Notes: generated by a model not told the origin, from the sequence alone. Counted from the first letter of the stretch, positions 5,602-9,290 are shown. The stretch is DNA of 60,035 bases from Parcubacteria group bacterium GW2011_GWA2_42_14 (GCA_000998135.1 LCCV01000009.1:1-60035); one strand, 5' to 3'. Made by a program: numbers and translations.

Positions 5602-6352
5602 GAATTATGTTGCCTTAGTAAAATCTGGCTATATCGGTGAACACCTCATTATGCGAGACACATAGTGAGACAATACCGAGGGAAGTCGCCTGCTCAAATT
5701 TTTAAACTTTTATTTAAATTATTAAAAGAAAAACCCACACGGATTAAATCATGTGTGGGTGCAATCTATGAGGTTTGGGCTTAAACGAGCTTAAACTTTG
5801 TGCCTAAGTACCAGAATAGCCTTATCTCCTTTTTTTGACCTTGGAAGACCGTGAAGTCCAAATGGAGCCGTATCAAACTGGTCAACATAAAGCGGACTAT
5901 CATAAGAGCTTGGAATAAGGTCGCTCATTAACCGCAATGCTGTTACTTCCCTATCTGTGCGAGCAAACATTACGATTTTCAAAGATGGTTTGTTGACTCG
6001 AATTCGATATGACAGCCTCATGCCAATCCTCCTTTTAGGATAGTTGTGTTATGCTAACAATAGCATATTGAAAAAGAATTGTCAAGAGTTTAAAAATTTG
6101 AGCGGGTTGACCCCGTAGAGACTACACGCTGGATCGAGCACCTTTCATGTTCGGAATTTGTATGCGGTTTGCAAACATTACAGATGTTAAGTAACTGCAT
6201 CAAAAAATTTCAATGTGAGAAAGGTGCTCGAAAGATATAGTCCGAACTCCATGGCGACATGGAGAGCTAAGCAGAAATGACTTAGCCAGTAACATTCCGC
6301 GACTGTCCGCGTTAAGTCCGCGTATGTCTGCGGTTGTTATAGTAACAACATG
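5602..6352 (+). mobile_element. group I intron A at E. coli-equivalent site about 1931
   Basis: Exon joins as ctaaggt|agcgcaattcc (E. coli CUAAGGU|AGCGAAAUUCC). The 5' exon ends in U and the intron ends in G. It has the core element aagatatagtccgaac and shared blocks atatcggtg, ataccgagggaagt and accccgtagagact. Confidence 0.8.
5791..6021 (-). CDS. 76-aa protein of unknown function, antisense, inside a loop of intron A
   Basis: AGGAGG (6028-6033) is 6 nt from the ATG. TTGACA (6080-6085), 17 nt, TATTGT (6057-6062) form a promoter. The terminator is cccacac/gtgtggg plus T-run (5727-5760). The cassette is closed by the stem gctcaaatttttaaac / gtttaaaaatttgagc. Confidence 0.55.
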   Translation of the reverse strand: MRLSYRIRVNKPSLKIVMFARTDREVTALRLMSDLIPSSYDSPLYVDQFDTAPFGLHGLPRSKKGDKAILVLRHKV

Positions 6353-6529
6353 AGCGCAATTCCTTTTCGGGTAAGTTCCGAAGCGCACGAAAGGCGTAAC
6401 GACTGGAGGACTGTCTCAACGAAGAGCTCGGTGAAAATACAATGCCGGTGAAGATGCCGGCTACCTGCAGTTAGACGAAAAGACCCCGGGAGCTTTACTG
6501 TAGCTTGATATTGGGTCTAGGAACACCGC

Positions 6530-6733
6530 TTTTTCTACAAAATTAAAATGCCGCATAAAGCGGCAATGGATTAAACAAAAAATGGCCAAATGACGAGAGG
6601 AATAAGAAAAATTACCACTGCAAAAATTGTCATAGCATCTAGGACGATCATTTTCTATCCCCTCGCGATTCTTATAAAAGGCCTAAGAAAAGTTTAATCC
6701 AAAAGACATTTATTGTCAATGTTTGCAGAAAAA
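6530..6733 (+). other. 23S IVS-6 (helix-tip insertion, domain V 5' part)
   Basis: Arms caccgctttttctacaaa (6524-6541) and tttgcagaaaaagcggtg (6722-6739) lie between gctttactgtagcttgatattgg and gacagtgtctggtgggcagtttg. Confidence 0.8.
6571..6651 (-). CDS. 26-aa hydrophobic peptide, antisense to 23S (below ORF-track cutoff)
   Basis: MIVLDAMTIFAVVIFLIPLVIWPFFV. GAGGGG (6659-6664) is 7 nt from the ATG. TTGACA (6714-6719), 17 nt, TAAACT (6691-6696) form a promoter. The terminator is gccgc/gcggc plus T-run (6545-6564). Confidence 0.5.
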   Translation of the reverse strand: MIVLDAMTIFAVVIFLIPLVIWPFFV

Positions 6734-6940
6734 GCGGTGAAACCTGATTGAGACAGTGTCTGGTGGGCAGTTTGTTTGGGGCGAAATTCTCCTAAAAAGT
6801 AACGGAGAAGTCCAAAGGTCAGCTTAAGACGGATGGAAACCGTCTGTGACGTGTAAAGGCAAAAGCTGGCTTAACTCCGAGGCGGACATGCCGAGGAGAT
6901 ACGAAAGTATGGCTTAGTGAACCGATGGCCATGTCTTGTT

Positions 6941-7058
6941 TTCGACAAGACCGCAGAATAACGCAGACAGCACGCGGAAGGTCGCAGAATTTTTTCTGCG
7001 TAATTCTGCGTCAGTTCTGCGAGTGTCTGCGATCTTGCGGAAGCAAGATACTTACTAG
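6941..7058 (+). other. 23S IVS-7: ORF-less periodic-word hairpin
   Basis: Inserted in the hairpin cttgtt...aacaag between gtgaaccgatggcc and ggccaaagattaacggataaaag. Its core of about 50 nt (6972-7021) is nearly identical to 4443-4491. Confidence 0.75.
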
Positions 7059-7150
7059 AACAAGGCCAAAGATTAACGGATAAAAGCTACCCCGGGGATA
7101 ACAGGCTAGTCGCTTCCAAGAGTCCATATCGACGAAGCGGATCGGCACCT

Positions 7151-7749
7151 TGAACATATCGGGGTGCTATGCCAGTAATGGCATACCTGGGAATATTTGG
7201 AGAATATTCCAAAATAAAAATCTCGCTAATATCGGTGAAGTTCTATTGAATTTTGAACCAATTTTGATAGGATAATACCGAGGGAAGTTATTTTTTCTCT
7301 TATAGGTCGAATAGTTATTATTTACTTAACCAAGTTTACTTTTATGGGAATAGAGTCATGGCCAAAGCCGTTTCAAGAACGGCCGGCAGATTTTATAGAA
7401 ATAGAAGAGGAAGAAAGGCGACGGGAGAAAGAAAGAATAAAAAGAGAAAAAGAATTACAAAAAGAAAAAGAAAAGCCCAACCCTCTTCTTAATAAAGAAA
7501 GAGTAAAAGAAGAACTGGAGAAACTGGAGAAAGAAGAAAAAAAATAACCCCGTAGAGACTTTAATCTGATTCATTCAGATTAGGATATTTTGCTTTTAGC
7601 AAAATATAATACGCGAGCCCCTAATTCCGTTGTAAGCGGAACGGGTGAAGATATAGTCCATGCCTCTAGTAATAGAGGAAGTTTCGTAATTTCTGCGTGA
7701 TTCCGCGTTAATTCCGCGTGAGTCCGCGGTTTTGCGAAGCAAAACATAC
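7151..7749 (+). mobile_element. group I intron B at about site 2500 (boundaries +/-3 nt)
   Basis: Splits ggcacct | cgatgtcggctc (E. coli GGCACCU|CGAUGUCGG). It shares atatcggtgaag, gataataccgagggaagtt, aaccccgtagagact and ggtgaagatatagtcc with introns A and C. I could not place a canonical terminal G. Confidence 0.65.
7344..7547 (+). CDS. 67-aa Glu/Lys-rich ORF in a loop of intron B (sense)
   Basis: ORF fills the segment between ccgagggaagt and accccgtagagact. It has no clear SD, and the low-complexity EEEERRREKERIKREKELQKEKEK may be non-coding. Confidence 0.3.
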   Translation: MGIESWPKPFQERPADFIEIEEEERRREKERIKREKELQKEKEKPNPLLNKERVKEELEKLEKEEKK

Positions 7750-7780
7750 GATGTCGGCTCAACTTAGCGCGGGGCTGGAG

Positions 7781-8529
7781 AAAACAAACCTTCTCTCTCT
7801 CGCGGAAACGCGAGAGTAATAAATGAGCTCAAAACGGTGAAGACTTCACATGTGATGTGGATATCGGGAATTGCGAAATTCGCAGGTCCCAGGTATCATA
7901 GTTATATGAATGTTAACGCCGTGGGAAAAGAGCTTGCTGAAGTCGAGCGAGCATATATAGCAGGTTTTTTGGATGCAGATGGAGCAATTATGGCTCTTAT
8001 AGAAAAGCACTCCGAAAAACACTTTGGCTATAGAGTAAGGATTGCTGTAAAAATCACTCAACGGGATCGAAAGATTCTTGATTGGTTTTGCGGCAAGTGG
8101 CGGAAGGGGTCCGTCAAGAAAAACAGAACTGCATTTGATTGGATCACGCGTGATCAAAAGATTGCCAAAATGATTCTGACGGTTCTGCTTCCTTACTTGA
8201 AAGTTAAAAAGAAACAGGCAGAAATTGCACTAAAAATTCTTAATTCTGAATTGCGGGTGCGTTCTGACCTTATTAAAGTTGCTCGTCTCGCAGATGCATT
8301 ATCAAAGTTTAATGTTCGATCAAAAAATCGACGTAAAAATTTTGCCACAATGATCCAAGCAAGCACTTCCCCTAACGACTGAACAATGCTGCCTTAAACA
8401 GCAACGTGAGATAGAAACGTACATACGTTTCTATAATACGGCTCACACCTATGTTTCAACCGGTAACGGTTGCAAATACGGTGATGGAATAGTCTGATAC
8501 CTGAAGAAATTCAGGAAAACAACAAAATG
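7781..8529 (+). mobile_element. group I-like intron D with LAGLIDADG ORF, at about site 2532 (boundaries +/-3 nt)
   Basis: Splits ggggctggag | aggtcccaagcg (E. coli GGGGCUGAAGUAGGUCCCAAGGG). It has the P-like hairpin ctctcgcggaaacgcgagag and the core-like element ggtgatggaatagtctgatacc. Confidence 0.65.
7906..8382 (+). CDS. LAGLIDADG homing endonuclease (single-motif, I-CreI-like size)
   Basis: YIAGFLDADGAIMA motif, about 158 aa from the ATG at 7906 (the track ORF starts at an upstream GTG at 7837). It is located in an rRNA intron. Confidence 0.85.
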   Translation: MNVNAVGKELAEVERAYIAGFLDADGAIMALIEKHSEKHFGYRVRIAVKITQRDRKILDWFCGKWRKGSVKKNRTAFDWITRDQKIAKMILTVLLPYLKVKKKQAEIALKILNSELRVRSDLIKVARLADALSKFNVRSKNRRKNFATMIQASTSPND

Positions 8530-8589
8530 AGGTCCCAAGCGTTCGGCTGTTCGCCGATTAAAAAGTTACGCGAGCTGGGTTCAAACCGT

Positions 8590-9290
8590 CAATAAAAAGA
8601 ACCCAAATATTGACATCGAAATCTTTTAACAAGCTTATGATAGGAGTTTGTTGAAAAAACACGGCGGCTTATACGAGTAATCGTGTTCGAAAAAACCGAC
8701 TCATATCGGTGGATTCCTATTCGTCCCTTTATGTGGGATGCGCAGACAGTCGCGGACATAACGCAGACAGTCGCGGAAATTGAAATCCCAACCTGGATTT
8801 GATAGGATAATACCGAGGGAAGTTAGGTCGAATTTATTTAAATCTTAATATTTCTAAAAAATCATGGAACAAAAATATGAAGGGCAATCAGAGAAAGCAC
8901 CACAAATAATGTTAGATGTTGCGAATTTGATTTCACGATTAAGCGGAGAGATTGAAAAAGGAAACCTCACTCAAACTGTAAAAGAAAGTTTGAAACGTAT
9001 GTTAGAAGCCGGAATTAAAGATTTATCTGAATAATACTTAACCCCGTAGAGACTTGTTCGGCAATATCATGTCGGACAGACCAAGCGCACAAAATTTTAT
9101 GTGCTCGGTAACACGTCGGTCTCCATCCGCATGCATGCGGAAGGATGATGGTATAGTCCAATCCCTCTGGTAACAGAGGATATGCATAGCATCGCGGACA
9201 GTCGCAGACTGGACGCAGAACAGCGCAGAATTTTCTGCGTAATTCTGCGTAAAGTCAGCGCGATTCTGCGGTTTTGCAATGCAAAACAAG
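8590..9290 (+). mobile_element. group I intron C at E. coli-equivalent site 2593
   Basis: Exon joins as caaaccgt|cgtgagacag (E. coli GAACGU|CGUGAGACAG). The 5' exon ends in U and the intron ends in G. It is a close paralog of intron B (catatcggtgg, gataataccgagggaagttaggtcgaat, aaccccgtagagact, gatggtatagtcc). Confidence 0.8.
8864..9034 (+). CDS. 56-aa ORF in a loop of intron C (sense; below ORF-track cutoff)
   Basis: MEQKYEGQSEKAPQIMLDVANLISRLSGEIEKGNLTQTVKESLKRMLEAGIKDLSE. It sits in the same loop position as the intron B ORF and has no clear SD. Confidence 0.3.
   Translation: MEQKYEGQSEKAPQIMLDVANLISRLSGEIEKGNLTQTVKESLKRMLEAGIKDLSE

Follow-up and report, generated by a model that had tools for sequence, protein, structure and literature searches.

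We analysed a 60,035-nt stretch of DNA from Parcubacteria group bacterium GW2011_GWA2_42_14 (LCCV01000009.1; hereafter the window) and found that three insertions in its 23S ribosomal RNA (rRNA) gene, A (5602-6352), B (7152-7748) and C (8590-9290), all on the plus strand, are, judged from exon mapping and covariation, three separate group I introns at sites L1931, L2500 and L2593 in a groundwater bacterium of the Candidate Phyla Radiation (CPR). They are probably separate members of one intron class that have lost their endonuclease genes and whose interiors and tails became mosaic through patchwise recombination. All coordinates are positions in the whole window, and site names such as L1931 follow the numbering of E. 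coli 23S rRNA; the designations L072, L123-L130, L131-L133, L135 and L137 are labels of loci in relatives and are distinct from the names of insertion sites. An initial reading of the sequence by a model, here called the original prediction, had proposed group I introns at these three sites and had explained them as a single lineage that spread within the genome. The first of these proposals is borne out by the mapping and covariation given below, and the second is not.

Position and boundaries of the three introns

The 23S rRNA gene extends from about 2525 to 9900, is enclosed by a 23-nt leader/trailer stem (inverted repeat I20) and is followed by the 5S rRNA. BLAST comparison with E. coli rrlH resolved it into 16 collinear exon blocks, and insertions make up more than half of the gene. 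The same comparison placed exon breaks at E. coli 1931|1932, 2500|2501 and 2593|2594, which correspond to 5601|6353, 7151|7749 and 8589|9291 in the window. Intron-less alleles, which the original prediction had suggested looking for, were found in close relatives for all three sites and set the boundaries to the base. In a near-identical strain (L133, exons 99-100% identical) B and C are absent while a LAGLIDADG intron lying between them, intron D, is kept; at L2500 and L2593 this strain reads GGCACCT|CGATGTCGG and AACCGT|CGTGAGACAG. The L1931 site is uninterrupted in relatives L123-L130. Exact excision, as seen in the intron-less alleles, gives back the canonical rRNA sequence. The extents first proposed for A and C stand unchanged; B, which had been put at about 7151-7749, is one nucleotide shorter at either end.

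Core structure and covariation

The ordered blocks that had been noticed in the three introns are indeed shared: ATATCGGTG, ATACCGAGGGAAGT and ACCCCGTAGAGACT are found in the 60-kb window three times each and no more, once per intron and in the same order, and TATAGTCC is present in A, B and C and in one further copy elsewhere in the window. The blocks correspond to the P, Q, R and S elements known from the cores of group I introns (P4, P6 and P7); they are intron sequence, not the exon sequence that they might have turned out to be. TATCGGTG comprises J3/4 and the 5' strand of P4, TACCGA-GGG the 3' strand of P4 with P6 straight after it, CCC-CGTA-GAGACT comprises P6', J6/7 and P7, and AAGATATAGTC comprises J8/7 and P7'. 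With the core blocks assigned in this way, the cargo of all three introns, which the original prediction had correctly placed in one homologous loop, lies in L6 (the P6a loop) and so in no novel position.

A family scan with the pattern CCCCGTAGAGACT-N85-115-TATAGTCC (R...S), which is anchored on this class's own R and S blocks, returned at least 120 loci, mostly from CPR and some from DPANN archaea, Omnitrophota, Chloroflexota and others. Among the matches listed, all mapped loci are rRNA genes, with insertions in 23S at L2593 (most), L2500, L2504 and about L2656 and in 16S at about 1060, 1147, 1419 and 1498, and the P and Q blocks are present nearly everywhere. The two blocks show compensatory pairs (TATCGGTG/TACCGAGGG, TAACGGTG/TACCGTGGG, TCGGGG/TCCCGA and TCGATG/TATCGA). 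A, B and C thus share their ordered blocks because they belong to one widespread class with a near-invariant core (P4, P6 and P7).

Covariation was assessed in 45 aligned introns, namely B and C and 43 introns of L2500 and L2593 from which the cargo had been trimmed. All 45 have the U.G pair at the 5' splice site, and P1, P3, P4, P5, P6 and P9 each occur with several canonical pair types, B and C fitting every pair. A, B and C all have complementary P7 strands (GACU/AGUC), with a compensatory GACC/GGUC when A is compared with the L1931 intron of L137, and P8 is predicted to form a hairpin in all three. The P3-P8 core whose folding had been named as the critical point is thus supported by covariation in P3, P4, P5, P6 and P9 and by complementarity in P7. 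For A, the L1931 introns of L135 and L137 served as the comparison: the guide tracks the exon (CTAAGGT/GCCTTAG in A, TTAAAGT/GCTTTAA in L135 and TAAAAGT/GCTTTTA in L137), and double compensatory changes are found in P3, P4, P6 and P7. In B, C and most family members, two hairpins stand between the R block and the covariation-supported P3'. These may correspond to the extra P7.1/P7.2 hairpins that lie between P7 and P3' in subgroup IA.

In intron A, the exon CTAAGGT (5595-5601) pairs with the internal guide sequence (IGS) GCCTTAG (5612-5618) to form P1, with U.G at the splice site. P3 (5623-5629/6128-6134) and P4 (about 5634-5639/5674-5679) follow, P6 is formed by GGG 5680-5682 and CCC 6111-6113, and the P7 strands lie in 6118-6123 and 6239-6243. 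P3' comes directly after P7 with no P7.1/P7.2, a long P8 spans 6135-6231, P9 lies at 6247-6264, and the last base is G6352. The tails of all three introns, the L6 cargos of B and C and the two insertions of C described below are likewise on the plus strand.

In intron B, P1 is formed by the IGS GGGGTGC (7162-7168) with GCACCT of the exon and the T that opens the intron. P3 lies at 7222-7226/7613-7617, the P, Q, R and S blocks are at 7229, 7275, 7547 and 7652, P7.1/P7.2 occupy about 7563-7610 between P7 and P3', and P9 lies at 7663-7678. In intron C, P1 is formed by ACCGU with GCGG(C)UU (IGS GCGG at 8664-8667), P3 by 8696-8700/9115-9119; the four blocks are at 8703, 8810, 9041 and 9152, P7.1/P7.2 at about 9056-9105 and P9 at 9164-9179, and the last base is G9290. 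C carries extra sequence in its P1 loop (8594-8692) and an insertion in P5 (8720-8802), both delimited by joints in the DNA runs. At the joint 8593->8693, a short IGS and a P2 hairpin replace the extra sequence of the P1 loop; the joint 8719->8803 skips the P5 insertion, which bears an orphan arm of four CGCAGA/CGCGGA words (8741-8781). Such joints show that there is a more abundant co-occurring organism with a lean C-like intron that has none of the additions in L1, P5 and L6. Orthologues of C are obvious in L131, L132 and L135 and also in L072, with a LAGLIDADG gene or a different cargo containing a small open reading frame (ORF).

Shared patches and a probable mosaic origin

Compared pairwise, the cores of A, B and C show 47-55% identity. 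Among the matches listed, the core of C reaches up to 67% identity to other L2593 introns and that of B up to 62%, with L2500 introns among its closest, and as core relatives of each other A, B and C rank 36th to 108th of 108. The P1-P2 region of each of the three fits introns at the same site elsewhere; the 5' end of B, including a P2 hairpin with a GTAA loop, is like that of L2500 introns and the 5' end of C like that of L2593 introns. Given these ranks and the same-site 5' ends, the shared blocks reflect class-wide conservation, present at at least 120 loci, and are no sign of recent duplication.

A first case of exchange concerns A. A segment of 461 nt (5672-6132), which runs from Q to R+8 and includes the whole cargo, is 94.8% identical to an L1951 intron of relative L123-L130, the exons of which are 97-98% identical to those in the window; eight independent contigs agree on this L1951 cassette. 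Outside Q to R+8 the two introns cannot be aligned. The L1951 intron (CGGGT|AAGG...CAATG|AAGTTCC) has its own P1, a different 5' region of about 195 nt and a different P8, P9 and tail, and A's own P1-P3 and S-P9 resemble those of L1931 introns. The idea that cargo passes between introns, put forward in the original prediction, gains strong support from this segment.

Shorter patches connect B with introns at L2593. B and C contain an identical 28-mer over P5', Q and the start of P6 (D9), and just past the Q block, after a 12-nt indel, TAGGTCGAAT is common to both, so that the shared start of the cargo that had been noticed earlier is confirmed. B combines an L2593-type P4 T-A pair, P5 and Q with, by contrast, an L2500-type P1-P2. 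From S through P9 and the linker to the words of its tail, B aligns closely with the L2593 intron of Harrisonbacteria L072, the mini-hairpin being identical, and L072's own L2500 intron has no tail. The nearest-neighbour core test was informative for mosaicism.

These relations suggest that A, B and C each retain a guide sequence and a P2 that come from the lineage of their own site, and that they are mosaic in their interiors and at their 3' ends. Recombination or gene conversion between different introns is the likely source, and the near-invariant Q, R and S blocks would supply the homology for crossovers. According to the original prediction, by contrast, one lineage multiplied in the genome by reverse splicing into ectopic rRNA sites and the paralogues later swapped their cargo. 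Several features can be read in that way: the tails of A, B and C are alike (those of B and C 82% identical), B and C have the 28-mer and TAGGTCGAAT in common, the P4 pair of B is T-A as in L2593 introns and not A-T as in L2500, the core blocks of A are L25xx-type and unlike those of the L1931 introns of L135 and L137, and the same cargo is found at L1931 in one genome and at L1951 in a relative. However, the cores of the three are less alike than those of C and other L2593 introns or of B and its closest matches, and guide retargeting alone would not yield the detailed match of P1-P2, including the P2 hairpins, to same-site introns. Moreover, the likeness between A and the L1951 intron ends abruptly at Q and R+8, whereas transposition of a whole intron would bring P2, P8 and P9 along, and P7.1/P7.2 are present in B and C but not in A. 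We consider multiplication within the genome unlikely; patchwise recombination fits better than transposition of whole introns by reverse splicing.

Cargo of L6

Among the matches listed, L6 lengths in the family fall into two classes, 10-50 nt and 440-650 nt, although intermediates exist; the longer class contains a LAGLIDADG ORF that begins inside P6a. Orthologues of B and C in relatives have LAGLIDADG genes in this loop, and those in L131, L132 and L135 encode LAGLIDADG proteins. This single-motif homing endonuclease gene, the usual occupant of L6, would have been lost from A, B and C. The original prediction had seen no homing endonuclease in any of them and none (LAGLIDADG, GIY-YIG, HNH or His-Cys) was recognisable here: the three cargo ORFs gave no match in Pfam, PHROGs or NCBIfam, endonuclease families included. 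We also considered whether the cargos might be remnants of LAGLIDADG genes, but searches by blastn, tblastx and tblastn, run against over 100 cargos of the family and against all loci, returned nothing.

The purine-rich cargo of B (7289-7546) contains a 67-amino-acid E/K-rich ORF on the plus strand (7344-7547), and that of C (8824-9040) a 56-amino-acid ORF, likewise on the plus strand (8864-9034). Both had been listed as sense ORFs; their places are right and yet they are probably non-coding. Neither has a ribosome-binding site (RBS). The protein search gave no homologue for the ORF of B and did not even call the ORF itself, which sits in a purine-rich stretch where stop codons would be rare, and the ORF of C matched only itself among 5.8 billion proteins and is unlike the small ORF of L135's L2593 intron. 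In B and C, L6 would be filled with about 220-260 nt of unrelated sequence, in which the ORFs look like products of chance. As a separate observation, the L2593 introns of the related Parcubacteria L072 and L135 have small E/K-rich ORFs of 65-73 codons in L6. A 222-nt contig from the RNA runs (X21/X22) matches the cargo of B at 7314-7535 with 0 mismatches and has an adapter-defined end at 7314. It is the sole organism-specific piece in the RNA runs, and the metatranscriptome run that yielded it held no organism-specific exon sequence; we take it as a single unexplained hint of a stable RNA. That the cargo of B is a separate widespread element was rejected, as this cargo was confined to the runs that contain the window sequence.

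The cargo of A (5687-6109) is closed by a P6a stem, 5689-5711/6084-6106, which forms inverted repeat I24 (23 nt, 91% complementary). It contains an antisense gene for 76 amino acids (A76; 5791-6021, minus strand) with an AAGGAGG RBS, a promoter TTGACA-17-TATTGT at 6085-6057 and a terminator hairpin at 5755-5736. Two homologues were found, P0001 with 89% identity and P0004 with 48% identity (E=5e-10). The latter is encoded in the L1931 intron of L137, a distant CPR contig, with its own TTGACA-17-TATACT promoter and within the same P6a stem GCTCAAATTTTT. A homologue this diverged, with its own promoter in the same stem, argues that A76 is real and has long been tied to L1931 introns; as far as sequence can tell, A76 is a genuine gene, in agreement with the promoter-driven antisense gene of the original prediction. 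A76 had no match in Pfam, PHROGs or NCBIfam, and its AlphaFold model (predicted local distance difference test score 72, beta-beta-alpha-beta-beta) had no match in the Protein Data Bank better than E=0.16. The ratio of non-synonymous to synonymous substitution rates against the 89% homologue is about 0.57, calculated from only 13 differing codons (5 synonymous, 8 non-synonymous), a number too small to be decisive.

Four antisense gene cassettes are present in the 23S rRNA gene, at 2676-3041, 5060-5400, 5689-6106 and 6530-6740. Each is bounded by a long inverted repeat, with a perfect TTGACA -35 box beside the boundary stem. Their ORFs encode, in this order, 84 (hydrophobic), 60, 76 and 26 amino acids (the last hydrophobic: MIVLDAMTIFAVVIFLIPLVIWPFFV). 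Hairpin terminators were found in three of the four, the terminator scan having left out the first, and cassettes 1 and 3 resemble each other at their promoter ends (76% identity over 37 nt). Only one of the four lies in an intron; the other three sit directly in rRNA helices. The L1-stalk region (E. coli 2088-2224; window 6508-6752) gave no match and has cassette 4 in its place, where L123 has recognisable stalk-like sequence (GTAGCATAGGTGGGAG...) instead.

Word-repeat tails

The word-repeat tail and small hairpin that had been described for all three introns can be aligned between them. Each tail is made up of four TCYGCG words at intervals of 10/11/10 nt and, after them, a mini-hairpin of 7 bp (repeat family D1), and stops 2-3 nt short of the 3' splice site; typical family members, among the matches listed, have only about 28 nt after S. 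The tail of A (6294-6349) consists of four TCCGCG/TCTGCG words and the mini-hairpin GTTGTTA-TAG-TAACAAC, and is separated from the 3' splice site by 3 nt. That of B (7690-7746) has four TCYGCG words and the mini-hairpin GTTTTGC-GAA-GCAAAAC, and that of C (9184-9288) is a full hairpin of four CGCRGA and four TCYGCG words with the mini-hairpin GTTTTGC-AAT-GCAAAAC. According to folding computation, the tails of A and B can self-fold via their CGCG cores. The tail of A (6295-6332) and the orphan arm in P5 of C (8741-8778), which are 2.4 kb apart, form a 38-nt inverted repeat with 89% complementarity. The computed duplex (-67 kcal/mol) is the strongest of 42 arm pairs and exceeds that of any module's own two arms; this complementarity could reflect either pairing or a copying event.

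The word-repeat module, usually with a matching arm of four CGCRGA words, also forms the 23S leader (2405-2499) and is found in insertions at about E. coli 225, 1170 and 2405. At these rRNA expansion sites, hairpins of CGCRGA against TCYGCG words with the 10/11/10-nt spacing occupy 3114-3187, 4423-4500 and 6946-7049. TCTGCG occurs 18 times in the 7.4-kb rRNA gene and 8 times in the remaining 52 kb. The word variants CGCTGA/TCAGCG are found between protein genes, and one TCCGCG array lies within an ORF (20440-20530, 28830-28900 and 48019-48060). Of the relatives, L072 carries the module on its L2593 intron as well as at two of these rRNA sites; L133 and L123 have other sequence at the module sites that are covered (about E. 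coli 2405 in both and about 1170 in L123). In other genomes, word-repeats are built of other words; P8, the tails and the helix-45 intervening sequence (IVS) of L072 and L135 have word-repeat hairpins made from TCAGA/TCTGA, TCYGAT and CCAATGTC. The 3' tails of the introns look like copies of a clade-specific word-repeat hairpin that also fills the leader and three IVS sites.

Splicing competence and points against the proposed history

We infer that A, B and C splice themselves. Several findings weigh against this and against the proposed mosaic history. The last base of B, as placed by the intron-less L133 allele, is A7748, so that the canonical terminal G is missing. In the scan with the Rfam group I model Intron_gpI (RF00028), which had been suggested from the outset, all three introns gave matches (A 35.5 bits, E=1e-7; B 20.3 and C 24.8 bits, both partial), but none reached the gathering score of 50, and a gathering scan of Rfam finds no intron here. 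The matches cover S, P9 and, in A, P3'-P8; the L6 cargo and the P7.1/P7.2 hairpins break the model. The RNA runs contain no organism-specific junction reads, and they hold almost nothing organism-specific, the metatranscriptomes mostly cross-mapping conserved rRNA of other organisms. L1931 and L1951 introns are missing from the 123 family matches listed, which is only suggestive since the scan was anchored on the class's own R and S blocks and the figure comes from the matches listed. Finally, short segments underlie the view of B and C as mosaics, and only five columns, too few to decide, cleanly separate the L2500 and L2593 lineages, B being mixed.

Some or all of the introns might instead be decayed and no longer self-splicing. 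Their removal would then fall to host RNases, such as RNase III cutting at the long stems, or would depend on host factors, and a fragmented 23S rRNA would possibly be left. The terminal A of B would fit such a state, as would the loss of the endonuclease genes and the large insertions in L1, P5, L6 and the tail, and the same word-repeat hairpins occupy 23S positions known as RNase III IVS sites (PMC11270868). Against this, the core pairings, the U.G pair and the guides are intact and covary with the exons. Seven L2500 introns in other genomes likewise terminate in A, so that the terminal A appears to be a tolerated trait of the lineage. A 23S intron without the terminal G is reportedly one of two self-splicing introns in another bacterium (Raghavan et al., 2007, cited in PMC11270868), and the three sites lie in the peptidyl-transferase region, where unligated breaks would be less likely to be tolerated. 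We regard decay as improbable, more so than multiplication by reverse splicing, and favour introns that are still able to splice. A chimeric contig that joins rRNA of different community members via conserved k-mers is hardly credible: many related introns in the samples do share 20-nt Q and R flanks and give ambiguous joints in contig graphs, yet independent contigs from four DNA runs (matching, for example, 5572-6263, 7121-7675, 7263-8570 and 8563-9314) cross the exon-intron junctions with 0 mismatches at an even depth of about 7x, which shows that the arrangement is not an assembly artefact. The public runs that contain the window sequence are groundwater and soil metagenomes, and the 23S insertions have their closest named relatives in CPR genomes of the Parcubacteria group that come from similar sites.

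Other features of the locus

A fourth intron, D, lies between B and C at 7783-8529 (E. coli 2532/2533). It has a LAGLIDADG ORF of 158-181 amino acids (7837-8382) in the same loop as the cargo of A, B and C, an S-like GGAATAGTC and a 5' exon with no terminal U. Intron D is present in L133 and absent from L131, L132 and L135. Near the 3' end of the 23S rRNA gene, an insertion at 9486-9804 is closed by a 26-nt inverted repeat and encodes a GIY-YIG protein (Pfam E=1.5e-18). This insertion is absent from the near-identical L133; L123 has a GIY-YIG ORF at the helix-45 site instead. Clusters of introns in the same 23S stretch were also seen in relatives, at L2500, about L2585 and L2593 in L072 (4797-6112) and at L1931, L2500 and L2593 in L135 (minus strand). 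Upstream of the 23S rRNA gene, protein-coding ORFs are found and not a 16S gene, so that the rRNA genes are apparently unlinked, and a TTGACA box at 2380 stands right before the leader module.

Discussion

The locus clearly illustrates how introns evolve by modules in nature. One cargo, together with the core sequence on either side, recurs in introns that lie 20 nt from each other in genomes that are nearly identical; strains with 99-100% identical exons differ in whether they have the introns; the endonuclease gene appears to have been replaced; and the introns bear a repeat hairpin that is specific to the clade. Should the antisense cassette family and the repeat hairpins have functions, they would bear on rRNA expression and processing in minimal bacteria, the rRNA genes of which are more than half insertion. 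A joint reading of these elements is doubtful but can be formulated: Q and R would be portable recombination handles that move L6 cassettes between sites, one of them a self-contained antisense gene (promoter, RBS, 76-amino-acid ORF, terminator and closing stem) of a new protein family that rRNA introns maintain, and the hairpins of tails, leader and IVS sites might pair over kilobases, as the tail of A might with P5 of C. Within it, whole L6 cassettes may move between sites, as seen for L1931 and L1951, and hairpin pairing may coordinate folding, splicing or processing of the pre-rRNA. As three similar antisense cassettes sit directly in rRNA helices, the abundant pre-rRNA could be an antisense regulator of the cassettes.

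A, B and C are members of the intron population covered by the survey of CPR rRNA genes that Tsurumaki et al. published in 2024 (PMC11270868). It reports insertions in 82% of 23S rRNA genes, 45% of them group I by Rfam, with a concentration in the 3' part of the gene, as well as IVS-like insertions at RNase III sites. Group I introns with LAGLIDADG genes are described as frequent, at sites including 1931, 1952 and 2593, and LAGLIDADG_1 as typical at 1917, 1931, 1952, 2593, 2604 and 2657 (PMC11270868). The surveyed introns are like A, B and C in clade, gene, sites and group-I-like core. However, LAGLIDADG genes are their usual cargo, whereas A, B and C have no endonuclease gene, and the antisense gene of A with its own promoter and the word-repeat tails of all three set the present introns apart. 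Relative to the parts of the survey consulted, the endonuclease-free cargo including an antisense gene family, the Q-to-R cassette shared by L1931 and L1951 and the word-repeat tail module appear new, and cross-site mosaic relations between introns are not described there (PMC11270868). The basic finding was expected since group I introns in CPR rRNA genes had already been documented.

Organellar and bacterial introns are known at L1931, L2500 and L2593, among them the chloroplast I-CreI intron of Chlamydomonas and the L1931 introns of Thermotoga. These share their sites with A, B and C and have an endonuclease ORF looped out from P6; the tails, the insertions in L1 and P5 and the non-endonuclease cargo are not known as features of those introns. 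In their extra P7.1/P7.2 hairpins, B and C may resemble subgroup IA. Coxiella burnetii reportedly has two self-splicing 23S introns, Cbu.L1917 and Cbu.L1951, one of which is said to have no terminal G, as in the title of a 2007 report by Raghavan and colleagues (cited in PMC11270868). Like the introns described here, they are close-set in the same 23S region, with L1951 as a shared site and a missing terminal G as in B; they are in a different host and, going by that title only, are not known for cargo exchange or word-repeat tails.

Homing endonuclease genes move independently between group I introns and pass through a cycle of gain, decay and loss. As in that system, the cargo at this locus has a history separate from that of the intron, ORF-less or degenerate forms coexist with others, and cargo can be antisense, as are endonuclease genes in nuclear L2066 introns (PMC9548176). 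In contrast to mobile endonuclease genes, the cargo here is no endonuclease, has no evident mobility of its own and travels with the flanking Q and R blocks. The hairpins at about E. coli 225, 1170 and 2405 resemble RNase III-processed IVS of 23S rRNA in lying at or near the classical sites and in their long imperfect stems, but this module is also found on the 3' ends of three introns and in the leader, and it is built from 6-nt words at helical-turn spacing.

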